DNA of 64,000 nucleotides. Source: Nitrospirota bacterium (lineage in GTDB: Bacteria; Nitrospirota; Nitrospiria; Nitrospirales; Nitrospiraceae). The stretch lies in NCBI GenBank assembly GCA_963703955.1, contig CAVPGK010000010.1, forward strand, positions 96,001 through 160,000, given 5' to 3'. Made by a program: the position numbers and the translations under genes. Shown here one piece after another: positions 22,704-45,086 of the stretch (within the stretch, counting starts at the first letter, position 1; each line of letters begins with the position of its first letter). The notes below the pieces were generated by a model. It ran no database searches. It saw nothing but the letters and a program-made list of their open reading frames with translations, and was not told the origin of the DNA.

Positions 22704-24149
22704 TCATTGAGGCGAAACCGCGTTGTACTCTGTCAATTCATAAGCCGACTGCGAGATCAACGGAGTTTTGGCAGCCTCCGTCTCCAAGTCCCGTAGAAGC
22801 CGTTGAAACTCCTTGTCGTTCCGGATGAGACGGGACGCGGCCAGGAGCAGGTCGTCGAGTTGATGATCGGTCAGCGCCAGATTCGTGGGAATTTTCATGA
22901 CGCGCGCCTGCTCCTCCGGATCTTCCAACTCCGACAAACTGACATTGATGAAGTAAATGTCGGCATCGGGCGTGAAGACACTCGGACCGGTCTGTGCTCG
23001 CTGGCGGAGTTGTGCCCGCCATAGTTTGACGGCCTGACCCATCAGTTCGAAGGTGTCGTCGGAGTACCGATTGATCGGGATGTCGATCAAGGCGTTCAAC
23101 ACCCGCGTGAGGCTGGGAAGTTCATCCAGTTTGTACTGGTTCACATCCGGATGGGTCTCCGCGCTCACCATCAGGTAGACGAGTTTCCGGATTGTTTTCA
23201 CCCCGAGCACCTGGAACGAGGCTTCGACGTCCTCAACGAGTGCGGCTAGCTCTAACACACTGCGCATGCCGATGTTGTCAGCCAACGCGCCGTCCAACAG
23301 ATGGATGTACGGGCGCTTCTCGGCATCGAGATACGACCGCAGCTCGGTCGCGCGCCTTCGGCCCCACGAGGTCCGGCTCTCCGCGCTAATGTACCGCGGC
23401 GGGTCAAATCCGCACTGCCCGGCGTAGTTCTTCAACGAAAGGGGACTGAGGATCAAGGGGAGTGCGCTCGATGCGGCGGTCGCAACCGACAGCGGCAGTT
23501 TGCTGAGATCGGAACAAATCAGGTCGAACTGTCGCTGGTTGAATTCGAACCGCGAGACGGTTGCCATGTCGGAGGCATGAAGGAAGATGATCGGCCGCTG
23601 ATCACTTGAGACGAGGTCATTGAACGTGTGCCGGTCGAACAGCGCTTCGTCCAGCAATTCGGAAAGGATGTGGGCACGGCCGAAATAGGGGGACAAGAGC
23701 CGTAGCCAATTTTTGGGAGACCGCAAGATCCGCGCGCGAAGTTCGCTCTCCCAATCTTTCCGAAGAAAGCGATATTCGAAGTCATGAAAAATGCGGTCGT
23801 GATAGAGCGCATAATACGCCGCCGTGAAGCTGCCGCCCGATAAGGCATTGATGATATTGATTTCGTCGACCAGTCGCTTCCGATGGCCTTCCCACACGAT
23901 CGGTGTCCGGGCCAGTTCCCGCAACACGCCGTAGGAGAGCGCTGACGCCCGCGCGCCGCCACCGGAGAAAGAGGCCACAATAAAGAAACTGTCCGTGCTG
24001 CCGGCCACGGACGGAGGGAGGTTGGCGTAACGATACCCGTAGGCAGGATTCCACCGAGGAAGCGGAGCGTTCATGGTGGGGCGCACATACTCGCAGCCGA
24101 GCGTCAGGCTCAGCAGAGCGATCAATAGCCATACGCCTGCCTGCTTCAT
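22704..24149 (-). CDS. Patatin-like phospholipase lipoprotein, paralog 1
   Basis: Lipobox TLGC, SFSGGGARAS, ALSGGSF nucleophile elbow and LLDGALADN. Confidence 0.85.
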   Translation of the reverse strand: MKQAGVWLLIALLSLTLGCEYVRPTMNAPLPRWNPAYGYRYANLPPSVAGSTDSFFIVASFSGGGARASALSYGVLRELARTPIVWEGHRKRLVDEINIINALSGGSFTAAYYALYHDRIFHDFEYRFLRKDWESELRARILRSPKNWLRLLSPYFGRAHILSELLDEALFDRHTFNDLVSSDQRPIIFLHASDMATVSRFEFNQRQFDLICSDLSKLPLSVATAASSALPLILSPLSLKNYAGQCGFDPPRYISAESRTSWGRRRATELRSYLDAEKRPYIHLLDGALADNIGMRSVLELAALVEDVEASFQVLGVKTIRKLVYLMVSAETHPDVNQYKLDELPSLTRVLNALIDIPINRYSDDTFELMGQAVKLWRAQLRQRAQTGPSVFTPDADIYFINVSLSELEDPEEQARVMKIPTNLALTDHQLDDLLLAASRLIRNDKEFQRLLRDLETEAAKTPLISQSAYELTEYNAVSPQ

Positions 24150-24723
24150 GAGTTGGGGAAGGTTACAAAGCAGAGAGACGGGTGTCAAGGTACCCAAGAA
24201 CTGGCATGATTGACAGGGTATTCTCTTCACTGTGCACTTCAGATGCAACCTTTTGCTTGCCCGTCATTTTGCTACCTCTCCGCTACCAGAACGGGACAAA
24301 CCAGCACGATCAGGGGGGACCATGATGGATCCCTGTCGGGCCGCAAGACACCACAGATCTAAGGACGCGCGATCGATCGCTATGGCTACCTTTGACTCTT
24401 ATCTTTTGGATGGTCGAGTTCGAAGTGTCCGGCAATGCGTCACGATTCGAGGGGGAAGGGCCGGCTATTGTTCCCCGCAACCCAGACGGTACATGAGCTG
24501 GGATGACGCCATCTCTCGTCGCCTCTCACGGTGTCGGGGAGGTCGAAGCCTGTTATAGAACCCTATGAATCAAAAAGCCTGGGTCCGTAGAAGAGTCCAG
24601 CTCCTGCGCCTCGTTGCTCAAAATGTGAAGACTCACTTCGTGATGGGAAACTCGACAAGGACCGTGTCTTCATGCCGGATGGCGATGAGTTTCATCAATG
24701 GTGAGTCGGCGCATCTTCATTTC

Positions 24724-25440
24724 TCACGCTTTCGGCGGGACGCAGTTCTGTCCCCCCCGCTCTGTGCACAACCTGAACCGGGCTTGCTCCGCCCAGAACT
24801 CCAAGGTCTTGTAGACGTCATCCCAGGAATCAAACGAGTCCGGATCCAGGCGTTTCTTGCCGACACGCCGGTCGGCTGAGGCTCCCAGTACCTCGCCGGT
24901 TTGAGCATCGGAGATCTTCATTTCGATGCTGGCGTCCCCGACAAAAAGAGGCTTCCCGGTTCCGAGGTCTTTGAGCAGCGAGCCGAGGGCGAAGGCGTTC
25001 ATGGGAGCGGGGATGGTTGAGACAGCGCGCAACACCACATAGGCGGGGTCCGCTCTCGTGATCGCGGCCTGAATGCGCAGAGTATTCGGGCCAGGCTCAG
25101 AAACCATTTCGTAGTCTTTCGACAGGCTGAGGTAGGCAAGGCCGTAGAGGATATCAGCGATATGTTGGGCGTTCTTTTGCCGAGTCACATCGGTGGTAGG
25201 GGGACCCCAGACCTGGGCATGATCCAAGAGCATCTTCTTGTAAGTCCCGCGTGGAATGGTGGCAACCTTGGGGTTCTTGTAAAGCAGGAGCGCTTCCCCC
25301 TTTTCGCCCTTGTGCATCAGCGGGTAGAGATCGCCAAGGAAGCCGGATGTTTCAACCGACCGAGCCTGCTTGGTCGGCGCACATCCGATGAGCAAAGTCG
25401 TCAAGACAAGAACCACAAGGATGCGGGTAATAGCAATCAT
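24724..25440 (-). CDS. DUF3313-family lipoprotein
   Basis: Lipobox LIGC, SGFLGD, PGPNTLRIQAAIT and DAQTGEVLGASADRRVG. Confidence 0.8.
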   Translation of the reverse strand: MIAITRILVVLVLTTLLIGCAPTKQARSVETSGFLGDLYPLMHKGEKGEALLLYKNPKVATIPRGTYKKMLLDHAQVWGPPTTDVTRQKNAQHIADILYGLAYLSLSKDYEMVSEPGPNTLRIQAAITRADPAYVVLRAVSTIPAPMNAFALGSLLKDLGTGKPLFVGDASIEMKISDAQTGEVLGASADRRVGKKRLDPDSFDSWDDVYKTLEFWAEQARFRLCTERGGQNCVPPKA

Positions 25441-25695: not shown

Positions 25696-26316
25696 ATGAC
25701 GCACTCGGCTCAGATAACCATGTTGGTCGGGTTGGTGCTGACCGCCGGTGTGCTGACCGGCTGCGGGGGAGCCTCAGTCTATGCACGGGCCGCCAAGGCT
25801 CAAGCCAGCGAGTTGAATGTCTTGGCCCAAGCGCGCGACGACAGATTGAAGATGCACCTGCGCGAGGCGATCCTCGCCGACCAGGCCTTATCCGCTCTCA
25901 CCATTGCTCCTTACGTGTTCATGGAGCGCGGATTCGTCGTCGGACACGTCGGCAGCGCAGAGCAGGCTGAAGCCGTGCTTCGCGCCGCTCGAGGTGTGTC
26001 AGGCCTCCGCTCAGTAGACGGGTACCTTCCGGTCAAGCATTCCTCTCCGCAAACCAGTGTTGTGTCGAATACCGCCTCCGACGCGACGATCACGGCCGAA
26101 ACTAAGTCGGCCCTCGGGCTTGCTGGAGTTGTTGTGAGGCGGGTCAGCGTAGAGACGTTTGATGGGCAGGTCGTGTTGCTCGGGGTGGTATCCTCCGAAC
26201 AGGAGCGACTCCAAGCCGAACGAGCCGCGGCGGGTGTGAACGGCGTTCATGGCGTCACAAACTGGCTGTTGTTGCCGGAATCCGAATATTCGACGGTGCG
26301 GCCAAAGCTCAGGTAG
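25696..26316 (+). CDS. Dual BON-domain (OsmY/DolP-like) lipoprotein
   Basis: Lipobox LTGC; two BON repeats (SDATITAETKSAL...VSVETFDGQVVLLGVV...GVHGVTNWL). Confidence 0.8.
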   Translation: MTHSAQITMLVGLVLTAGVLTGCGGASVYARAAKAQASELNVLAQARDDRLKMHLREAILADQALSALTIAPYVFMERGFVVGHVGSAEQAEAVLRAARGVSGLRSVDGYLPVKHSSPQTSVVSNTASDATITAETKSALGLAGVVVRRVSVETFDGQVVLLGVVSSEQERLQAERAAAGVNGVHGVTNWLLLPESEYSTVRPKLR

Positions 26317-26326
26317 GTTGGATAGG

Positions 26327-27697
26327 ATGAACATTCTTCGTTCCTCGGTCGTTGCACTCATGTTGGCGGCCTTCACCGGGTGCGAGTATGTCCGGCCTAC
26401 CCTCAATGCTCCACTTGAGCGGTGGGATCAACGGTACGGGTACCGGTACACCAATTTCCCTCAAGCTCCTGACGGCAGCACGGACAGCCTTTTTTTCGTG
26501 GCCTCGTTTTCGGGCGGAGGCATGCGCGCCTCGACCCTTGCCTACGGGGCCTTGCAAGAACTCGCCCGCACGTCGATCATGTGGGAAGGACGCCAAGAGC
26601 GCCTGCTCGATGAACTGAGCATCGTCACGGCGCTGTCCGGCGGCAGTTTCACGGCTGCCTACTATGCGCTGTATGGCGATCGGATCTTCCACGACTTTGA
26701 ATACCGTTTTTTGCGGAAAGATTGGGAACACGAGCTCAAGTCTCGGATGTTCTGGTCGCCGTACAACTGGTTCCGTCTCTTATCCCCATATTTCGGTCGC
26801 ACCCACATCCTGTCGGAACTCCTGGATGAAGCCTTGTTTGACGGCCATACCTACGGCGACCTGCTGAGACGTGGTCACCAACCGATGGTGTATATCCACG
26901 CCTCCGACATGGCCATGCTGTCCCGCTTTGAGTTCAACCAGCGTCAGTTCGACATCATCTGTTCGGACCTCAGTCAACTGCCGATCGCCACGGCGACCGC
27001 CGCCTCCAGCGCCCTTCCCTTGCTCCTCAGCCCAATCTCACTGAAGAACTATGCCGGGCGCTGTGGATACCAGCCGCCGCCGTGGTTACAAGAAGCACAC
27101 AAGACCGCGACGGGGCAACAGCGGGCCAATGAGCTCCGGTCCTACTTCGATTCGAAGAAGCGTCCGTATGTCCATCTGTTGGACGGTGGGTTGGCAGACA
27201 ATGTCGGGATGCGGAGCATGGTGGAGACGGTTGCACTCGTGGGAGATGTTGAAACACTGTTTAAGGTCCTCGGGGTCAAGACGGTCCGAAAGCTGGTCTT
27301 CCTGGTGGTGAGGGCGGAAACTCTCCCGGATATGTCCTCCTACCAGTTCAGTAAGATTCCGTCTCTCTCTCGAGCGTTGGATGCGCTCGTTGACATCCCG
27401 ATCAATCGATACTCCATTGACACACTCCACCTCATGCGTCTGGGTGTGGATGGGTGGAGGACTGAACTCCGACACCGAAAGCAGAACACGGAGAGCGTGT
27501 TTGCGCCTGATGCCGACGTGTATTTCATCAATGCCAGTCTGAGTGAATTGGAGGATGCGGACGAGCGCGAGTATCTCATGAAGATTCCGACGACCCTGCA
27601 GCTCAATGATGAACAGATCGATCGGCTGCTCGCCGCTGCGACTCACCTGATCCGCAATGACCCGGATTTTCAGCGTCTGATGCGTGACCTGCAGTAG
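26327..27697 (+). CDS. Patatin-like phospholipase lipoprotein, paralog 2
   Basis: Lipobox FTGC, SFSGGGMRAS, ALSGGSF and LLDGGLADN; collinear and clearly similar to 22704-24149. Confidence 0.85.
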   Translation: MNILRSSVVALMLAAFTGCEYVRPTLNAPLERWDQRYGYRYTNFPQAPDGSTDSLFFVASFSGGGMRASTLAYGALQELARTSIMWEGRQERLLDELSIVTALSGGSFTAAYYALYGDRIFHDFEYRFLRKDWEHELKSRMFWSPYNWFRLLSPYFGRTHILSELLDEALFDGHTYGDLLRRGHQPMVYIHASDMAMLSRFEFNQRQFDIICSDLSQLPIATATAASSALPLLLSPISLKNYAGRCGYQPPPWLQEAHKTATGQQRANELRSYFDSKKRPYVHLLDGGLADNVGMRSMVETVALVGDVETLFKVLGVKTVRKLVFLVVRAETLPDMSSYQFSKIPSLSRALDALVDIPINRYSIDTLHLMRLGVDGWRTELRHRKQNTESVFAPDADVYFINASLSELEDADEREYLMKIPTTLQLNDEQIDRLLAAATHLIRNDPDFQRLMRDLQ

Positions 27698-27728: not shown

Positions 27729-27827
27729 ATGGTGTGGTCGGCGCATCTCGCTCTCACGCTTTCGGCGGGGCGCAGTTCGGTCCCCCCCGGCTCTATGCAC
27801 AACCTGAACCGAGTTTGCTCCGCCCAG
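27729..27827 (-). pseudogene. Degenerate copy of the 3' end and downstream flank of the DUF3313 gene (direct repeat of 24698-24796)
   Basis: Near-identical CTCACGCTTTCGGCGGG.CGCAGTTC.GTCCCCCCC...GCACAACCTGAACCG.G.TTGCTCCGCCCAG at both sites; encodes WAEQTRFRLC. Confidence 0.8.
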
Positions 27828-27883: not shown

Positions 27884-28177
27884 TTATGATGCTTTTGCCG
27901 GTCTCTTGTTGAATTCCATTTGGACACGCTCCGCCACAAATAATTTGAGTAGCGTCTGATATGGCACGTCATGTTTATTGGCTAGTATCTTCAGTTGTTC
28001 TAGCAGCGACTTTGGGAGTCGCAGGGAAATAGTTTCAGTTGAGGGTTTTAAACGAGGAAATAGCGTCCGTTTCGCTTTCGAATAATCAACATAGTCCGCC
28101 GAATCGTGTGTGGACCAGAAGTCGGACTCCTGCTTTTCATTCTTGAATTTCGGCATCTTTTTTAGTTTGCTCATCAT
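27884..28177 (-). CDS. BrnA/CopG-like antitoxin
   Basis: PKFKNEKQESDFWSTHDS...TISLRLPKSLLEQLKILANKHDVPYQTLLK; directly downstream of brnT. Confidence 0.85.
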   Translation of the reverse strand: MMSKLKKMPKFKNEKQESDFWSTHDSADYVDYSKAKRTLFPRLKPSTETISLRLPKSLLEQLKILANKHDVPYQTLLKLFVAERVQMEFNKRPAKAS

Positions 28178-28457
28178 ACCTGCTCCGTTCCTTCTTGCTC
28201 ATGTCCCTCGCCGAGATAACCCGAATGCGTTGATTCCTCACTGTAAAGACGATGAAAAGGAGGCGGCCCGTGTCAGTCCTTCCTAATACGAAATACCGTC
28301 CCTCTGCGACCGAATGCCGAATATCCTCAGTCACAACCAGAGGTTCATTGAAAAATACCTGCTCACATTCTGGAAGCGTGACGTGATGCTTCTTCCAGTT
28401 CTTTGTCTGGTTTCCTTCGTCCCAATCAAATCCCTCAAGCCTTGCGAGGTCGTTCAT
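28137..28457 (-). CDS. brnT: BrnT-family ribonuclease toxin
   Basis: GFDWDEGNQTKNWKKHHV...HS..EGRYFVLGRT...FTVRNQRIRVISARDM. Confidence 0.9.
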   Translation of the reverse strand: MNDLARLEGFDWDEGNQTKNWKKHHVTLPECEQVFFNEPLVVTEDIRHSVAEGRYFVLGRTDTGRLLFIVFTVRNQRIRVISARDMSKKERSRYDEQTKKDAEIQE

Positions 28458-28506: not shown

Positions 28507-28788
28507 CAAATCATCCGTGAAGTGGCGGAGTACCCCCCAAGCATTCGAAGGTGGTCCGCTTCTCCGCCATCCCTGGAATCGACTCCCATTAAGTGGCCTT
28601 TCATTTCGTTCGAGCCTGCAAATACTAGTATTTCTTCTCTTCAACGTGTTGACACGCTCCCGGGTAAAAAGTAGCCTTGGTCACGTTAACCACCCACTCA
28701 GCGCCATGGCAACGATCTATCCGTCATCCAAAGGTTCGTTCCCTGGTTAGCGCAGCAGTGCGGTTTGATCGGACCGGGAAGAGACCAC

Positions 28789-31294
28789 ATGCCTCCGGAA
28801 AACTTCGATGTGTTTCTGAGTTACCACTGGCGTGATCATGCACCTGTAGAAGCGCTTGCACGACGGTTGCGCGAGCAGGACCTCACGGTCTTTCTCGACC
28901 GATGGTATCTCACGCCGGGGCAATCATGGCCGAAGGCATTGGAGGCGACCCTTGCGCAATGTCGAGCGGTGGCCGTCTGCATCGGGCAGGGCGAAATGGG
29001 ACCGTGGCAGCAGCGGGAGCAATATCTCGCGCTGGAGCGGCAGGTGGCGGCTGAGCGCCGTGGTCAACACTTTCCCGTCATTCCCGTTCTGCTCCCCGGC
29101 GCAGAACCGCCGCTGGGGTTTCTCAGTCAAAATACCTGGGTCGATTTGCGCTCGCGTGTCGACGATCCGACCCTGCTCAACACGCTCGTCAGAGCCATAC
29201 ACGGCCAGTCGCCTGGCCCGGATGCGCAAGAAACGATCCGTGAGACGCTCACCAGCATCTGCCCCTACCGGGGCCTCCTTTATTTCCGCGAGGAGGACGC
29301 CCCATTCTTTTTTGGACGTGAAGAGGCCATCACTGAGCTGGTTCGCGCCGTTCAGCAGCACAGCCTTGTAGCGGTTGTCGGGGCCTCGGGCAGCGGGAAG
29401 TCCTCGGTCGTGAGGGCAGGACTCGTGCCGACTTTACGGAGAAGTCGTGAGCGAGTCTGGGAGGTGGCCACCTTCGTGCCGACCGATCGTCCGATCTATT
29501 CGCTCGCAGCAGTGCTCATGCCGTTCCTCGAGCCGGACATGAGCGAGACCGCCCGGTTGATAGAAACGAATAACCTGGTTGATGCCCTGGTGGAAAGGAA
29601 AGTCAAGCTGCGCGATGTCGCTGATCGCCTTCTTGCGAAGCAGCCCGGCACAGACCGGCTGCTCCTCATCGTTGATCAGTGGGAAGAGTTGTTCACGCTC
29701 TGTCAGGACGACGCCGCACGCCGGTGCTTCATCGACAGTGTGCTGGATACCACGGCCACGACGAGGGTGAGCGTGGTGCTCACCCTGCGAGGAGACTTTT
29801 TGGGTCGCGCCATTACCGCCTATCGGCCCCTGTCGGATCGTGTGCAAGGCGCCCAAGTGAACTTAGGGCCGATGAATCGGGAGGAATTGCGCCTTGCCAT
29901 CCAAGAGCCGGCACGCCAAGTGGGGCTGACGTTTGAAGCAGGCCTCATCGATCTGATTGTGGAGCAAGCCGGTGACGAACCCGGCCATTTACCCTTGCTT
30001 GAATTCGTGCTTCGGCAGCTCTGGGAGCAACGGCGAGGAGGGGAACTTCACCATGAAGCTTACAAGGCCATGGGGCAACTGCATGGCGCCGTCGCCCAAA
30101 AAGCCGAGGCTCTGTACGAACGATTGAATACGCAACAACAACGAGCCCTGCATAGGATTTTCATGCGTTTGGTTCGCCCTGGCGAGGGCGAGGCGGATAC
30201 GAGACGACGGGCGACCTTCGCGGATCTCGGCGAAGAGGCGCGACCTCTAGTGAAAACACTCGCCGATGCGCGATTGTTGGTGACTTCCCAGCGTCAAGGC
30301 AGTGCGCAGGAAACGATTGAGGTGTCGCACGAGGCGTTGATCCACCATTGGAAGCGACTCGAAACGTGGGTGGACGCGGACCGCCCATTTCTCGCCTGGC
30401 AACAGGGGCTGAACGTGGCGATGAAAGCGTGGGAAGACCAGCAAGGGGCACTCCGATTTCTTGCTCCGCGGGCGTCCGCTGGACGAAGCGTTGGATTGGC
30501 TCCGGAAAAAGTCCGAGGAACTCTCGCCACGCGAACGAGAGTATCTGGCGGCCAGCAAGAAACGCAAGATCAGAGAGCGCGTTGTCGTCGCTATCGCCGC
30601 CAGCCTCGTCCTTGCGCTGGTTGGTTGGCCGATCGCTTGGTTGTGGAAGGAAGGGGTAACGGTCCAATATGCCTGGTCGGTTCTGCGGGTGAGGTTGCCT
30701 CTGGTTCAGGTCCCCGAACCGGAGATGGTGCCAATTCCCGGTAAGCCGTATGCCATGGGGCGCTACGAAGTCACCTTTGAGGAATACGATGCGTATGCAA
30801 GATTAACCGGGCGACGAGTGCCGACCGATCACGACTGGGGTCGAGAGAAGCGTCCCGTGATCAACGTGTCGTGGGAGGATGGAGTGGCATACGCGAAGTG
30901 GCTGTCACAAGCCACGGGTAAACGTTACCGACTGCCGACAGAAACCGAGTGGGAGTATGCGGCGCGAAGCGGAGGGAAAAACGACATCTGGCCTGGAACC
31001 TCAGACGAGAGTCAATTAAAGGACTACGCGGTGTACAACACAGATCGCACAGAGCCTGTCGGCGGGAGAAAACCCAACGCTCTCGAGCTGTATGACATGA
31101 GCGGGAATGTGTGGGAGTGGGTGCAAGATTGCTACGACAAAGCGTATGAGGACAACTGCCGCCTGCGGGTGATCCGCGGTGGGTCCTGGCTCGGCACTCC
31201 GGAGGACTTGCGTGCCTCGAACCGGAATGGGGCCGACGCTGGCGACCGGGTCGGCGCCATCGGCTTTCGTCTGGCCCAAGACCGTCCGCAATAA
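28789..31294 (+). CDS. DGR target protein: TIR - STAND NTPase (nSTAND1-like) - transmembrane segment - FGE-sulfatase/CLec-fold domain (one frameshift near 30450)
   Basis: TIR: FDVFLSYH, VFLDRW, GPWQQRE, PVIPVLLPG. STAND: CPYRGLLYFREED..FFGRE, GASGSGKSS, LIVDQWEELF, LPLLEFVL, EVSHEALI. Hydrophobic [74 protein letters not shown]...IGFRLA. Confidence 0.9.
31169..31279 (+). repeat. DGR variable repeat VR1 (3' end of the target gene)
   Basis: 111 bp gapless alignment to TR. Manual count gives 19 mismatches opposite TR adenines and 8 non-A mismatches, all synonymous. Confidence 0.92.
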
Positions 31295-31375
31295 CCCTGT
31301 GCCCTTTGCCTTTTGGACCCTTTGCCTCTTCTCCGATGCCAGGGGTTATGAATCGGTGAAAAATCTCATGGACGA

Positions 31376-31735
31376 ATGATGGCTTCCACCGTGCCCCAGG
31401 CCGTGCAATCGTGCCATGACCTGCTCCTGTGGCTGATTCCGCAGCTCGACAATTTCCGCGCTCGCGCCGGTTCACGCTGGGTGAACGAATAGAAGCCGGG
31501 GTGCTCGACGTGCTGGAGCTGCTCGTTGAAGCGGCGTATACGCGCACCAAGGAGGCAGCGCTGCGGCGCGCGAATCTGCGGCTGGAGGTGGTGCGCCACC
31601 TGTGGAGACTTGCCCACGAACTGAAGGTCATGGCGACCCGCCAGTACGAGCATGGGGCGAGGTTGATCGACGATCTTGGGCCGGCAGATCGGCGGCTGGC
31701 TCCGCAGCCGGGACACCTCGCAGGCAAGCACATGA
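31376..31735 (+). CDS. avd: DGR accessory variability determinant (four-helix bundle; frameshifts near 31452 and 31680)
   Basis: QSCHDLLLWLIPQLD.FPRSRRFTLGERIE...ANLRLEVVRHLWRLAHEL...QYEHGARLIDDLGRQIGGW; its stop overlaps the RT start (ATGA). Confidence 0.88.
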
Positions 31736-32823
31736 AACGGCTCGGCGGTATCTTGGCCACAGCTGGTGAGTTTCGAGAATCTACTCAGCGCGTATCGCAA
31801 GGCGCGGCGGGGCAAAGGCGGCACGTCTGGCGTGGCGGAGTTCGGCCTGGATCTGGAGCGGGAGCTAATCGCACTGCAACGCGAGCTGCAAGAACGGCGA
31901 CTATCGGCCCGGGGATTACCGCCTGTTCACGATCTATGACCGCAAGCCGCGTGTCATCGCGGCGGCGCCGTTTCGCGACCGGGTCGTGCACCACGCGGTG
32001 ATGAATCTCATCGAGCCGCCGCTGGACCGCACGTTCATTGCAGATTCCTACGCCTGCCGCCGCGGCAAGGGTGTGCATGCTGCGGTGGATCGCTATCAGG
32101 CCTGGGCGCAGACTTATCGGTACGTCTTGAAAATGGACGTGCGGCAGTACTTCCCATCCATCGATCACGAACTGCTGAAGGACAAGCTGCGCCGGCGCAT
32201 CAAAGACCGGCGTGTCTTGGACCTGTTGGATCGCATCATCGACGGCTCTCCCAGATGGCAACGCCGAGCCTATGCTACTTTCCCGGTGACGACCTGTTCA
32301 CGCCGTTGGAACGGCGCGCGGGAATTCCGATCGGCAATCTGACGAGTCAGTTCTTCGCCAATCTGTATCTGGACGACCTCGACCATTACATCAAACAGGT
32401 GCTTGAACGTCAGACCCTACCTGCGCTACGTGGACGATATGGTGGTGCTGGATAACGACAAGGTTCGACTGGCTGACATTCGTGCGGCCGTCCGTGAGCG
32501 GCTCGCGGCCGATCGGCTTCGGCTTCACCCCAACAAGGCGCATGTGACGCGCGTGGCGCGACGGGCTGAATCTGCTCGGCTATGTCGTGTATCCCGATCG
32601 CCGCCGTTTGCGCAACGATAACGGTCACCGGTTCGCGCGCAAACTTCGCGGCATGGCGAAGGCGTATTACGCTGCGAGCGTCTGGACTGGGCCAGAGGTC
32701 AGGGCCTCGATTCAGAGCTGGATCGGCCATGCGAAGCATGCCGACACCGAGGGTCTTCGTCGAGCGATCTTCTCCCAGGCTGGTTTCACAAGGGGAGCGG
32801 GCCAAGCGACGGGCAGCGTGTGA
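31732..32823 (+). CDS. DGR-class reverse transcriptase (about 6-7 single-base frameshifts)
   Basis: [63 protein letters not shown]-type [24 protein letters not shown] and LRLHPNK. Confidence 0.92.
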
Positions 32824-32930
32824 TCCGCGGCGGTTCCTGGAACAACAAACCGGAGAACCTGCGTGCGTCGAACCGGAACAGGAACAACGCCGACAACCGG
32901 AACAACAACATCGGCTTTCGTCTTGCCCAG
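32820..32930 (+). repeat. DGR template repeat (TR)
   Basis: GTGATCCGCGGCGGTTCCTGGAACAACAAACCGGAG...AACAACAACATCGGCTTTCGTCTTGCCCAG contains 11 AAC triplets in the VR frame, aligns to VR1 and VR2, and overlaps the RT stop codon. Confidence 0.93.
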
Positions 32931-33110
32931 TCCGCCCGCACGGCAAGTGGCCGGCCCGGAGCCGGCCTGTTCACGGACAGGCCGGGTGAGGCAGCGGGTG
33001 TCCATGAGCCTGCTTCCCGGCCTTCCATCGAAACGGGAACGCCGAAGAGAGGGCCTGGGGTGACGCGATCGGGGCTGGTAGGCGACGCCGAAGGCCCCGA
33101 CGCTGCCTTG
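32931..33110 (+). ncRNA. Putative structured 3' spacer of the DGR template RNA
   Basis: Hairpin CCGGCCTGT-tcacgg-ACAGGCCGG (32962-32985) and stem TCGGGGC...GCCCCGA (33069-33100) directly after TR. Confidence 0.55.
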
Positions 33111-33215
33111 TCCAATCACGAGTATTCCTGAAAAAGACGAATGCTAGGACGGTGGCTTCCCGGTAGTTGCATTTTTGCTCGTGTTGTCGGATATTGGACA
33201 GCAAGAGGAGACGGC

Positions 33216-33422
33216 ATGACATTTACGATCACAATCACCCGCGACGAGGACGGGATCTACATCGCCGAGTGTCCGGCCATTCCGGGTTGTGTCAGTCAGG
33301 GTAAGACCGAAGCGGAAGCGCAGGCCAACATTCAGGACGCGATCAAGCAATGTCTAGAAGTACGCGCTGAGATGGGAATGCCGCTGACCGTCACCACACG
33401 GCAGGTTGAAGTCATCGTGTAA
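33216..33422 (+). CDS. hicB: HicB-family antitoxin (short form)
   Basis: RDEDGIYIAECPAIPGCVSQGKTEAEAQANIQDAI; GAGGAG RBS. Confidence 0.88.
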   Translation: MTFTITITRDEDGIYIAECPAIPGCVSQGKTEAEAQANIQDAIKQCLEVRAEMGMPLTVTTRQVEVIV

Positions 33423-33649
33423 TGCCGCCTGTTCCCGTTCTCCCTCCCTCCACCGTCATCAAAACCTTTCAGCGACTTGGTTGGCAGGTGGTTCGGCAGA
33501 AGGGGAGTCATGTCATCATGACACGACCCGGCCACATTGCCACTCTTTCGATACCCAATCACCCGGAAGTTGCGCGGGGCACGCTTCGCAGTCTGATCTC
33601 GAAAGCAGGGTTGACGGTGGAGCAATTTCTAGAGGCCTTGAACAAGTAA
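33422..33649 (+). CDS. hicA: HicA-family mRNA interferase toxin
   Basis: LGWQVVRQKGSHVIM...LSIPNHPEVARGTLRSLISKAGLTVEQF. Confidence 0.9.
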   Translation: MPPVPVLPPSTVIKTFQRLGWQVVRQKGSHVIMTRPGHIATLSIPNHPEVARGTLRSLISKAGLTVEQFLEALNK

Positions 33650-33954
33650 GGTCACGGGCTCTGCCAGTCAATCGAGGAAGGGGTCAAGGCGCTACGGAGC
33701 GAAGGGGATATTGGCCTATGAATCTGAAATCGTTGTCGTGCGAATCACATCGCGGTTAGCCGGGAACTGACATTCGCCCGCTGGTCCCGGGAAAGATTGG
33801 GTTCAGACTTCCCCCTTTCTTGCGACTCTATCGTTCAAGTTATCCGATGCAAACAGGACGGACTTTCCCACCCCTTCCGGTCGCCCAGCCCAGGAAATAC
33901 TGCTATTTCGCCTCGCCAATGAATTGACACGATCACGTGCAAACAGTAGTTTGT

Positions 33955-34129
33955 CAGCGGATGGATCGGCCTGGCTTGAAGCGGGCGGTGGCGATGGCGT
34001 CCAGCGCGTGATCCGGGGCGGCTCCTGGTCAGCGGACCGGAGTCCCTGCGTGCCTCGCTCCGGGACAGGGACAGCGCCGACGACCGGAACGACGGCATCG
34101 GCTTCCGTCTTGCCCAGGACCTCCCCTAA
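33955..34129 (+). pseudogene. Orphan 3' end of a second FGE/CLec DGR target, containing VR2 (34008-34117)
   Basis: [56 protein letters not shown]. Against TR: 15 substitutions and a 1-bp gap at adenines, plus 4 non-A synonymous changes. No upstream gene body. Confidence 0.85.
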
Positions 34130-34422
34130 GCCTGTGTCCTTTGCGCTGTGACCTTTTGCGTCTTTTCCGGGTGGGGACGGCGCGCGAGGGGATAGGACCG
34201 CACTATCAATGCGTACTCATCCCACATGAGCAGCTGAAGGCGTCATTTTCGTGTCCGTGCTTTGCGGTCACCGATGCGCGGCAAATGGAAAGGTAGGAAG
34301 CGCCTGGCGGCCGCATACATTAGTCGCCATCATAAAGGCTATACCAGGTCTTGATAATCGTACACGCTATGGCTAGAGTACGGGCGCGATCAGCTCCTCA
34401 CCGTTGGCGGTCTACGTAGGTC

Positions 34423-38738: not shown

Positions 38739-40240
<1,502 letters not shown>

Positions 40241-40244
<4 letters not shown>

Positions 40245-41809
40245 ATCGGCGAGACATGTTCAGCCGCTTGGATGGCCGGAGCGGAACCGTGGGATCTGAT
40301 CATCATCGGCGGCGGCGCGACCGGCGTCGGCGTCGCCGTCGATGCCGCGTCTCGCGGGTACGCGGTCCTGCTGGTCGAGCAGAGCGACTTCGGAAAGGGC
40401 ACTTCGAGCCGCAGCACCAAGCTGCGTGCACGGCGGCGTGCGCTATCTCGAGCAGGGCAACATTTCGCTCGTGCTGGAGGCGCTCAAGGAGCGCGGCATT
40501 CTGCGTCAGAACGCGCCGCACCTCGTCCAGCGACCTGGCCTTCGTGGTCCCGAACTACGACTGGTGGGAGGCGCCGTTCTACGGACTCGGGCTGAAGGTC
40601 TACGACCTGCTCGCCGGCAAGTACGGCTTCGGCTCTTCGCAGATCCTATCGCGAGAGGAGACGCTGAAGCGTCTGCCCACGATCAAGACCGAGGGACTGC
40701 GCGGCGGCGTCGTCTACTACGACGGCCAGTTCGACGATGCGCGGCTCTTGATCAATCTGGTCGCAGACGGCGGCGGAGCAGGGCGCGACGCTGCTGAACT
40801 ACGTGCGCGTGATCGGATTCACCAAGGGAGCCGATGGCTTTCTCGATGGTGTCGTGGCCAGGGACGTGGAAACGGGCAGCAGAGCTTCACATGACCGCGC
40901 GAGTCGTGATCAACGCGACCGGCGCCTTTTGCGACGGCGTGCGCCGCATGGCCGATCCCGGCGTCGACGCCGATGATCGCGCCCAGCCAGGGCATCCACC
41001 TGGTGTTCGACCGGTCGTTTCTGCCCGGGACCAGCGCGATCATGGTGCCGCACACGCAGCGACGGCCGCGTGATGTTCGCGATCCCCTGGCACGGCCACA
41101 CGCTGGTGGGCACCACCGACACGCCGATCGTCGATCCGACGCTGGAGCCGCTTCCCATGGAAGACGAGATCGAGTTCATCCTGACCACGGCGGCCAGTAT
41201 CTGCACAAAGCCCCGACGCGAGGCGATGTCCTGAGCGTCTTCGCCGGAATCCGCCCGCTGGTGAGGGCGGACGACGGCACGAACACGGCCGTCCTGTCGC
41301 GCGATCATACGATTCACATCGACCGCTCCGGCCTGCTCACGATCGCCGGCGGGAAGTGGACCACGTACCGGCACATGGCCGAAGACTGTGTCAACCAGGC
41401 GTCCACGCTGGGGAGGCTTCCTGAACGACCCTGCGGCACGACGCGCCTCCCGATCCACGGGTTCCATGAGCATGCCGAACAGTTCGGGCGTCTGGCGGTG
41501 TACGGCTCCGACGCGCCGGCCATTCAGGACCTGATGCAGGCCGAGCCGGGCCTCGGGGAACCGCTGCATCCGGCTCTGCCGTACTGCGGCGCCGAGGTGG
41601 TTTGGGCCACCCGTTTCGAGATGGCCCGCACGGTTGAAGACGCGCTCGCGCGGCGCACTCGGGCCCTGCTGCTCAACGCCCGCGCAGCGGTCGAGATCGC
41701 TCCACGCGTCGCGGAATTGATGGCTCGTGAACTGGGACAGGATGCGGTCTGGCAGACGGGGCAGGTCAGCGCCTTTCGGGAGTTGGCGAAAGGGTATCGG
41801 CCCTCTTGA
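40241..41809 (+). CDS. glpD: FAD-dependent glycerol-3-phosphate dehydrogenase (several frameshifts)
   Basis: [50 protein letters not shown] and GGKWTTYR. Confidence 0.92.
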
Positions 41810-44363: not shown

Positions 44364-45086
44364 GTGGCGGGAGTGGTTCCAGTGCGACCGGACAGTGCAA
44401 AGCTTGGACGGGGGTGGGAACATCTTCCTGGCAAGGCCTCTTTCGTATCCATTGGAGCAGACGGGACGGCCTTTCATATCGGTGACGGCGGATCGATCTG
44501 GGGTCGCACCGGGAGCAAGTGGGAGTCCTATCCGGGCCATGGCATCGGGGTGGCCGTTGAGCCCAAGGGGGTCCCGTGGCATTGGAATAGGATAGGCGAG
44601 ATGTATAGATGGGCCGATGACAGTTGGCAGCCGTGCCCAGGATTGGCGACATTTATGGCAATTGGTGCGGATGGTTGCGTCTGGCATGTCGGTCAGTGGG
44701 TCAATTTAATTGGTGGGCCGATATACCGCTGGCGCGGATCTGGTTGGGAGCAACAACCAGGGTTGGCCGCCGGCCTCGCTGTTGAACCGAATGGTACCCC
44801 TTGGCACTGGAATGCAGAAGGTCTGATCTATCGGTGGAATGGATCGTCATGGCAAGAGGTGCCTGGCAAAGCGCAGTTTATATCGATTGGACCGGAGGGA
44901 TCAGCGTGGCAGGTTGGCCTTCATCAGGCTTGGGAACAAGGATATGCCATGTCTCTGTGGAGTGAAGGGGAATGGCACACCATTGATGGAGCGGCGGTTG
45001 GAATAGCCACCGGTCCCAACGGTCTCCCGTGGCATTGGAACGCGAAGGGAGAAATCTATAGGAGATTAGAATCAAACCCAAGATGA
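44364..45086 (+). CDS. Trp-rich tectonin-like beta-propeller repeat protein (start uncertain)
   Basis: About six 35-40 aa repeats of W..PG.A..(I/V)(G/E)..G..WH....G.(I/M)YRW. Confidence 0.7.
   Translation: MAGVVPVRPDSAKLGRGWEHLPGKASFVSIGADGTAFHIGDGGSIWGRTGSKWESYPGHGIGVAVEPKGVPWHWNRIGEMYRWADDSWQPCPGLATFMAIGADGCVWHVGQWVNLIGGPIYRWRGSGWEQQPGLAAGLAVEPNGTPWHWNAEGLIYRWNGSSWQEVPGKAQFISIGPEGSAWQVGLHQAWEQGYAMSLWSEGEWHTIDGAAVGIATGPNGLPWHWNAKGEIYRRLESNPR

Follow-up and report, generated by a model that had tools for sequence, protein, structure and literature searches.

Mutagenic retrohoming by diversity-generating retroelements (DGRs), in which the adenines of a template repeat (TR) are mutagenised and copied into the variable repeat (VR) of a target gene, is well established. 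Kaur 2021 (PMC8195603), in the passages available, describes nSTAND1-FGS conflict systems headed by TIR and accompanied by DGR genes, links a reverse transcriptase (RT) and a four-helical accessory protein to them, and proposes that they are analogues of adaptive-immunity receptors; the source data of its Figure 2 show RVT adjacent to TIR+nSTAND1+FGS in both Thioflavicoccus and Accumulibacter. Doré 2024 (PMC10907252), in its parts on clade 5D, reports cellular DGRs whose targets combine nSTAND1 or NACHT with a C-type lectin (CLec) fold, some bearing an N-terminal TIR, and lists Nitrospira marina Nb-295 with TIR+FGE genes beside an RT. The adaptive-sensor hypothesis has thus already been published, as has the pairing of TIR+nSTAND1+FGS with DGRs (Kaur 2021, Doré 2024). 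The present analysis concerns a 64,000-nucleotide stretch of a Nitrospirota bacterium genome (GCA_963703955.1, contig CAVPGK010000010.1, here C10), hereafter the window, in which an avd-RT-TR DGR follows a receptor gene of this kind.

An initial annotation of the window, made from the letters alone, had proposed a complete, self-diversifying DGR aimed at a TIR-STAND-transmembrane-CLec receptor and had remarked that related DGR-targeted sensors are known in other bacteria, which the two papers above bear out in the parts cited. The reading preferred here, held with moderate confidence, is that of a chromosomal avd-RT-TR DGR behind a single-pass receptor gene, with a variable repeat (VR1) decoupled from the TR, with genes that are probably intact and with a receptor that would act as a sensor. 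Open reading frames (ORFs) and Pfam matches confirm that target, avd, RT and TR are contiguous on the + strand in that order, and the profile search that had been suggested recovered TIR_2, nSTAND1, FGE-sulfatase, bAvd and pieces of RVT_1. All parts of the element are present, but it can be called complete only once about ten frameshift sites are discounted. The features of the locus are as follows.

28789-29160, + strand: TIR_2 domain with WQQRE (Glu77); Pfam TIR_2, E=2e-22
29263-30435, + strand: nSTAND1 NTPase with Walker A GASGSGKS and Walker B LLIVDQWEE; Pfam nSTAND1, E=2e-122
30434-30450, + strand: single net +1 frameshift between the target halves, probably a sequencing error, located by DNA alignments to relatives L001, L003, L004 and L017
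30570-30650, + strand: predicted single transmembrane helix after KKRKIRER; Kyte-Doolittle peak 1.84
30725-31294, + strand: FGE-type CLec domain with a Cys pair before the VR; Pfam FGE-sulfatase, E=8e-42
31166-31279, + strand: VR1
31292-31335, + strand: pyrimidine-rich motif 3' of the VR, common to the family, with no predicted hairpin
31378-31736, + strand: avd, with two frameshifts in the assembly; Pfam bAvd, E=6e-11, over the cut-off
31733-32822, + strand: DGR-type RT with seven net-insertion frameshift sites; RVT_1 pieces
32817-32930, + strand: TR, with 31 adenines and 11 in-frame AAC codons
32931-33110, + strand: conserved structured RNA 3' of the TR, probably the priming/spacer part of the DGR RNA

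The TR and VR1 are collinear and gap-free. VR1 differs from the TR at 19 of 31 adenines, and these sites explain all 12 amino-acid changes, as the initial annotation had it; mismatches are strongly enriched at adenines relative to other bases (19/31 vs 9/83, Fisher p=1.4e-7). The theoretical repertoire it had estimated at about 10^13 variants also holds, since the 11 AAC codons give 15^11=8.6e12, rising to 5.3e17 with all A-containing codons. For comparison across the family, a search with the intact relative L003 listed 120 proteins, and the 102 of 780-960 residues form the homologue set used below. Mean codon entropy in the family reaches 2.93 bits at the 18 codons with a TR A in position 1 or 2, against 0.64 bits at the 20 other VR codons (p=1e-6), 0.52 in the TIR and 0.68 in the STAND domain, and 101 distinct VRs occur among the 102 proteins. 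The difference between A and other codons therefore establishes that the target family is diversified by DGRs, with variation confined to TR-adenine codons; this applies to the family as distinct from the allele in the window. The A-specific variation that the initial annotation proposed to look for among relatives is thereby found. In VR1 itself (31190-31258), none of the 11 positions that derive from AAC codons is aromatic, a state seen in only 4 of 96 family members; the mean aromatic share in the family is 24%.

VR1 and the resident TR are nevertheless no longer in register. Overlooked in the initial annotation were differences at 9 of the 83 non-adenine sites, all of them synonymous (chance 1.4e-4), so that about 9 of 31 synonymous sites (~30%) have changed; they are spread over the whole of VR1, its last 7 nt included. 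Adenines account for 19/28 (68%) of the mismatches, and the two repeats are not identical at non-adenine positions; the adenine share lies below those used for typical TR/VR pairs, 75% in the relevant part of Roux 2021 (PMC8144416) and 80% in that of Vallota-Eastman 2020 (PMC7517822). Non-A template bases are copied during retrohoming, according to the section concerned of PMC12875486, and Doré 2024 (PMC10907252), where it sets out target assignment, relies on a perfect non-A match. Among 11 distinct close TR/VR pairs of relatives, eight show no non-A mismatch, one of them having a gap of one base, and the remaining three show 7, 8 and 15; four more distant pairs have 2-5. The nine synonymous differences therefore indicate that VR1 has not been rewritten from the resident TR for a long time, and the claim that the window copy currently diversifies itself from that TR is unsupported in view of the same nine differences and of their lack in eight of the 11 close relatives. 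VR1 was copied long ago from this TR in an earlier state or from another TR, and has been maintained under purifying selection. Sequencing error as the source of the non-A mismatches is ruled out by their all being synonymous. A foreign TR was also sought as the origin of VR1, and none of 14 related TRs fits, the best leaving 9 non-A mismatches; three of the nine non-A states are impossible from any of the 14.

Two further VRs escaped the initial annotation, which had implied a single one. VR2 (34004-34116) is one base short and shows 5 non-A mismatches plus the gap against the resident TR, and VR3, on contig C21, shows 8. Just 3 non-A differences separate the two, and the fit of sister TRs to them, with 2 and 5 mismatches, equals or exceeds that of the resident TR, with 5 and 8. 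None of the three VRs in the assembly, which measures 3.3 Mb and is 82% complete, matches the TR, and no second RT, avd or TR was detected in it. VR1, VR2 and VR3 record earlier templates while the RT and TR stay conserved. Two explanations offer themselves: the cassette replaced another one recently, or the target that truly belongs to it lies outside the assembly or disappeared not long ago; the RT tree, in which support for the placement of the window RT is 37-55, cannot decide between these and does not prove a cassette swap. The incompleteness of the genome weighs against decoupling from every target, since a matching one could lie in the unassembled part. The VR3 locus (L080, C21 ~132,400-133,700) is a frameshifted TIR_2-FGE gene ending in VR3, with toxin-antitoxin-like pairs on its flanks and an IS-like transposase nearby.

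The accessory protein and RT are assigned through their intact counterparts as well as directly. On the largest avd piece, NCBIfam DivGenRetAVD (NF033474) scores 74.5 bits (E=7e-21), below its cut-off, and the L003 Avd scores 99.8 bits, above it. Window avd and RT are the sole Avd and RVT_1 matches in the genome. The RT motifs (ten residues, not shown here, and YVDD) are present in different frames, and DNA identity is 74-82% to intact close relatives, including 75% to L003. In a similarity test, the best PDB match of the L003 RT is 8UB7 (E=4e-52), far ahead of the best group II RT (2e-20), and its profile scores fall below all NCBIfam group II, retron and DRT cut-offs. The 8UB7 entry, titled simply 'Reverse transcriptase', is presumably the bRT-Avd complex of the Bordetella phage BPP-1 DGR. 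Judged from these matches to its relative, the RT most probably belongs to the DGR lineage, in line with the initial annotation; a group II intron, retron or DRT identity is ruled out by the profile scores and PDB matches. Downstream of the TR, RNAalifold on 11 copies of the segment yields 52 pairs, 13 with two-sided change, and the segment reaches 95% identity to relatives; the single-sequence fold attains a z of only -1.7.

The motif 3' of the VRs consists of repeated CCCTTTG-like units after the stop codon of VR-bearing genes (31304-31330, 34139-34165 and C21 near 132466). A search pattern, written after the flanks had been inspected, matches exactly three times in the 3.3-Mb genome, behind VR1, VR2 and VR3, and not at all in three Markov simulations; a shorter core is present in 34 of 48 VR flanks of relatives. 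No hairpin or cruciform was predicted 3' of the VR, as none of four flanks gave a significant DNA fold (z -0.8 to +1.1). The motif is a candidate target-recognition element that would replace the BPP-1 hairpin. A full-text literature search, with most subscription papers outside its reach, found no description of it.

The receptor protein, about 870 residues in this family, appears to be encoded by one fused TIR-nSTAND1-transmembrane-CLec gene read across a single frameshift. The window CLec is shortened by ~24 and ~14 residues, and the same shortening occurs in two close homologues that are nevertheless fused, P0095 (837 residues; 83% identity to the window over TIR-STAND, the best of the 102) and P0093 (836 residues; 79%), which argues that the TIR-STAND and FGE halves form one gene. 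TIR_2, nSTAND1 and FGE also lie in one chain in 100 of the 120 homologues listed, so the annotation of a single target gene stands, and separate TIR-STAND and FGE genes are unlikely. Damage as the origin of the 24-residue CLec gap is likewise ruled out, the gap being common to P0093 and P0095 and compatible with a well-folded model. The TIR glutamate, noted from the outset as retained, falls in WQQRE, which aligns with the WxxxE of the TIR structure 3H16; Glu77 is found in 100 of 102 full-length homologues, the other two being gapped. In nSTAND1, K204 is conserved in 101/102 and S205, D296, E299 and E300 in all 102. Judged by this conservation, the TIR Glu and the Walker A and B residues of the window target look intact. 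One homologue, P0026 (1347 residues), adds a ParA/CbiA domain to TIR-nSTAND1-FGE; the excerpted bioRxiv preprint 10.64898/2026.10.19.760177 describes single-transmembrane TIR-ParA receptors, a related ParA-on-STAND theme. A metagenome scan with the transmembrane-CLec half of the target returned nothing above 53% identity.

An AlphaFold2 model of the window CLec (pLDDT 90, pTM 0.89) matches PvdO (TM-score 0.83) and the DGR variable protein TvpA (2Y3C, TM-score 0.77) in Foldseek, and by these comparisons the VR sits at the C-terminus of the CLec fold. Identity of the target as an FGE enzyme (PvdO/EgtB) is ruled out, with scores far below the cut-offs. In 100 of 102 homologues the C-terminal half has a single hydropathy peak, the N-terminal half having none, and lysine and arginine are richer before than after the helix in 102/102 chains with a peak, placing positive charge on the STAND side. 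The Cys pair ahead of the VR is present in 94/102 homologues; in the loci of relatives, which are kin and not independent, it accompanies a hydrophobic segment (43 of 48 ORFs, against 2 of 6 without). The Cys pair, its link to the segment and the charge-flanked helix together suggest a periplasmic CLec, and the target is probably a type II inner-membrane protein with cytoplasmic TIR and nSTAND1; it counts against this that the orientation is predicted from hydropathy and from rules on charge. The full-length P0095 model has a pTM of 0.46, its domain arrangement being unreliable, and matches the core of the plant TIR-NLR RPP1 (7DFV) in Foldseek with E=1.6e-9 and a TM-score of ~0.2-0.3.

The frameshifts bear directly on whether these genes are functional. 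They number about ten, one in the target (near 30438), two in avd and seven in the RT, where all breaks are net insertions. Read in the reference frame, the window RT has no stop and departs from just one of 175 invariant residues, where intact relatives depart from 1-9, and its ratio of non-synonymous to synonymous substitution (dN/dS) is 0.11-0.14, compared with 0.12-0.17 between intact copies. Similar patches affect unrelated genes: glpK and the next gene (38739-41200 in the window) are broken by dense single-base insertions, probably an assembly error, and relative to the unpublished genome G006 the 2.1-kb patch around glpK (39.1-41.2 kb) holds 13 indels, 12 of them insertions. In a larger survey, 15 of 105 other sampled genes were frameshifted. 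Since the RT lacks substitution decay and such patches occur elsewhere, the frameshifts are probably assembly errors, and the cell would carry intact target, avd and RT. Several observations weigh against this: nine of the ~10 breaks lie within 1.4 kb of avd-RT and one within 2.5 kb of target, none of 27 other genes was frameshifted in an earlier sample, shift directions outside the patches are near even (11 vs 8), decayed cassettes are common in relatives, and a read search for the strain returned no run with more than 12% of its words. Related-strain contigs from four sets were either short or came from relatives at 85-95%.

Cassette turnover is the norm in this family. Among 27 Nitrospirota target loci, six have a full avd+RT, ten have stubs, seven have nothing within 2.6 kb, one is cut by a contig end and three could not be assigned; targets with a TIR head and those with a DUF4062 head are mixed on the RT tree, and an intact RT occurs together with a mismatched VR in L015 and L138. 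The family seems to work in bursts, in which a receptor is diversified and the cassette is then lost, swapped or drifts while the allele stays fixed. Apparent deletion or recombination products of VR and TR were observed in L008, L045, L139 and L025/L144, comprising a target whose end consists of TR sequence, a VR with the TR 3' flank behind it, a TR that is VR-like in its 3' half and the fusion of a target to an RT stub.

Two alternatives to a decoupled VR1 beside a probably intact cassette concern the state of the element. That the resident RT and TR currently rewrite VR1, the assembly showing just one allele, is decidedly improbable. Purifying selection acts on the TR, on the RNA structure 3' of it and on the RT, VR1 is adjacent and bears the family 3' motif, selection could purge rare new variants and leave an old majority allele, and an intact RT also accompanies a mismatched VR in L015 and L138; yet homing copies non-A bases (PMC12875486, in the section concerned) and nine differences span VR1 up to its last 7 nt, with ~9/31 synonymous sites changed where eight of 11 close relatives show none. 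It is also unlikely, if slightly less so, that the element has truly decayed, with avd and RT as pseudogenes, VR1 frozen at the moment of breakage and the receptor possibly broken. The concentration of indels in avd-RT, the deletion remnant at VR2 and the frequency of stubs and hybrids in relatives would fit such decay, but the RT retains its invariant residues, a normal dN/dS and a stop-free frame in spite of the ~30% synonymous divergence between VR1 and TR, and its breaks are all net insertions, as in the glpK-region patch.

The function of the receptor is approached by analogy with established STAND and TIR biology and with the hypothesis already put forward in Kaur 2021 and Doré 2024. The periplasmic CLec would bind a ligand, ligand-bound receptors would cluster and the STAND modules oligomerise, the TIR domains might then cleave NAD+ or make a nucleotide signal, and this output could arrest or kill the attacked cell; the chain as a whole is judged somewhat better than an even prospect. 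A more far-reaching proposal, possible but doubtful, regards the family as a one-chain, membrane-spanning anticipatory immune receptor in which a disulfide-bonded, DGR-randomised periplasmic CLec would capture foreign molecules ahead of their entry into the cytoplasm and switch on a cytoplasmic, NLR-like TIR NADase, and in which specificities would be locked by cassette loss or divergence as a heritable memory, with VR1 as an example. Two negative results weigh against the sensor mechanism: PADLOC gave weak TIR-only hits and called no system, and a full-text search, to which most subscription papers were closed, found no experimental NADase, oligomerisation or defence evidence for nSTAND1-CLec proteins; the passage of Doré 2024 (PMC10907252) on them likewise describes them as experimentally uncharacterised. 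The main rival for receptor function is non-defensive recognition, in which the variable periplasmic CLec of cells in microcolonies would sense ligands of self, kin, partners or surfaces, with TIR/STAND passing on a regulatory signal instead of triggering death. It would agree with the long-fixed VR1 allele, which suits a stable ligand, with Roux 2021 (PMC8144416), which in the part concerned takes cellular DGR targets with a membrane anchor to be adhesion or cell-cell proteins, and with the regulatory tuning proposed in the corresponding part of Vallota-Eastman 2020 (PMC7517822). It is considered rather unlikely, given that effector heads (TIR, DUF4062) are exchangeable on one chassis, that distribution is patchy (15/250 family genomes), that toxin-antitoxin pairs stand on both flanks and that the fold resembles TIR-NLRs.

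Beyond the element itself, the surroundings contain the following features.

27884-28457, - strand: brnT/brnA-type toxin-antitoxin pair, upstream flank; Pfam BrnT_toxin and CopG_antitoxin
28596-28683, + strand: putative target promoter, homologous to 33871-33956; TTGACA, 17 nt and TAG(C/T)(C/T)T in both copies
33177-33649, + strand: hicB/hicA toxin-antitoxin pair; Pfam
33871-34170, + strand: apparent second-target remnant, comprising a promoter-like copy, ~15 CLec codons, VR2 and the 3' motif

The promoter role of 28596-28683 is inferred from its local alignment with 33871-33956 (score 76; best of 200 shuffles, 55), and a consensus promoter scan did not include the segment among its predictions. 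The VR2 segment, by its composition, appears to be a deletion remnant of a second target; a related-strain contig (run X2) keeps both flanks of 33871-34170 with a different sequence across VR2. Elsewhere in the window, patatin-like genes at 22704-24248 and 26249-27697 form a divergent pair with a 707-nt inverted match at 72%, a short duplicated segment (24722-24796 / 27752-27827) lies near them, and a 47-nt unit recurs in three copies at ~226-nt spacing (44562-45061), probably within a repeat protein. The named relatives of the source genome are Nitrospira/Nitrospirales metagenome-assembled genomes, and a genus-level search contained this genome alone. The avd-RT-TR DGR family is widespread in Nitrospira; of 250 family genomes searched, 15 carry the TIR-nSTAND1 gene and 7 a near-full cassette.

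If bacteria possess anticipatory sensing akin to that of antibodies, its foremost candidates are STAND-CLec proteins diversified by DGRs. In the present family a single protein contains the effector, the switch, the membrane anchor and the variable domain, and several relatives have perfectly matched cassettes, which makes it a compact test system. The intact natural cassettes L003, L011, L012, L017 and L023 would render the bacterial adaptive-sensor hypothesis testable with three genes. The window copy, with its assembly breaks and decoupled VR1, is a poor experimental start, yet it illustrates the turnover of cassettes and targets. The family occurs, moreover, in nitrifiers relevant to water treatment.

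Compared with the NTPase-FGS systems in the passages of Kaur 2021 (PMC8195603), the window target has the same domain string with DGR genes nearby. The Nitrospira rows of that source (54/54 places) list DrHyd+nSTAND1+FGS, nSTAND1+FGS, TIR+FGS, TIR+TIR+FGS or FGS alone and no TIR+nSTAND1+FGS; none of its TIR+nSTAND1+FGS rows covered (30 of 38 places) marks a transmembrane segment, its FGS is described as an intracellular sensor, and its passages contain no TR/VR analysis. Clade 5D in the parts of Doré 2024 (PMC10907252) concerned, for example Thiohalocapsa PB-PSB1 DGR3 and DGR6, offers similar targets, one of them a NACHT protein whose CLec is predicted to be periplasmic, along with cassettes that are disrupted, targets at remote sites and an antigen-sensor hypothesis, and the window target type resembles the targets described for this clade. 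The PB-PSB1 VRs vary in metagenomes and the trans targets match the TR at all non-A sites, whereas VR1 does not. With the BPP-1 DGR and Treponema TvpA (2Y3C), the locus has in common the best RT match, Avd, the CLec fold and an adenine-specific AAC design; its gene order is avd-RT-TR as opposed to avd-TR-RT in BPP-1, no GC-rich hairpin is predicted after the VR, in contrast to the account in the relevant part of Guo 2011 (PMC3240598), and its target is a signalling receptor where those of BPP-1 and TvpA are a tail fibre or lipoprotein. The plant TIR-NLR RPP1 and the bacterial Avs and bNACHT STANDs have the same effector-STAND-sensor order, but their sensor is a cytoplasmic LRR or TPR array, whereas that of the window would be a DGR-varied CLec across the membrane. 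To these systems the present analysis adds a TIR subfamily of Nitrospira whose CLec is probably periplasmic, the frequent loss of its cassettes and a motif that flanks the VR.

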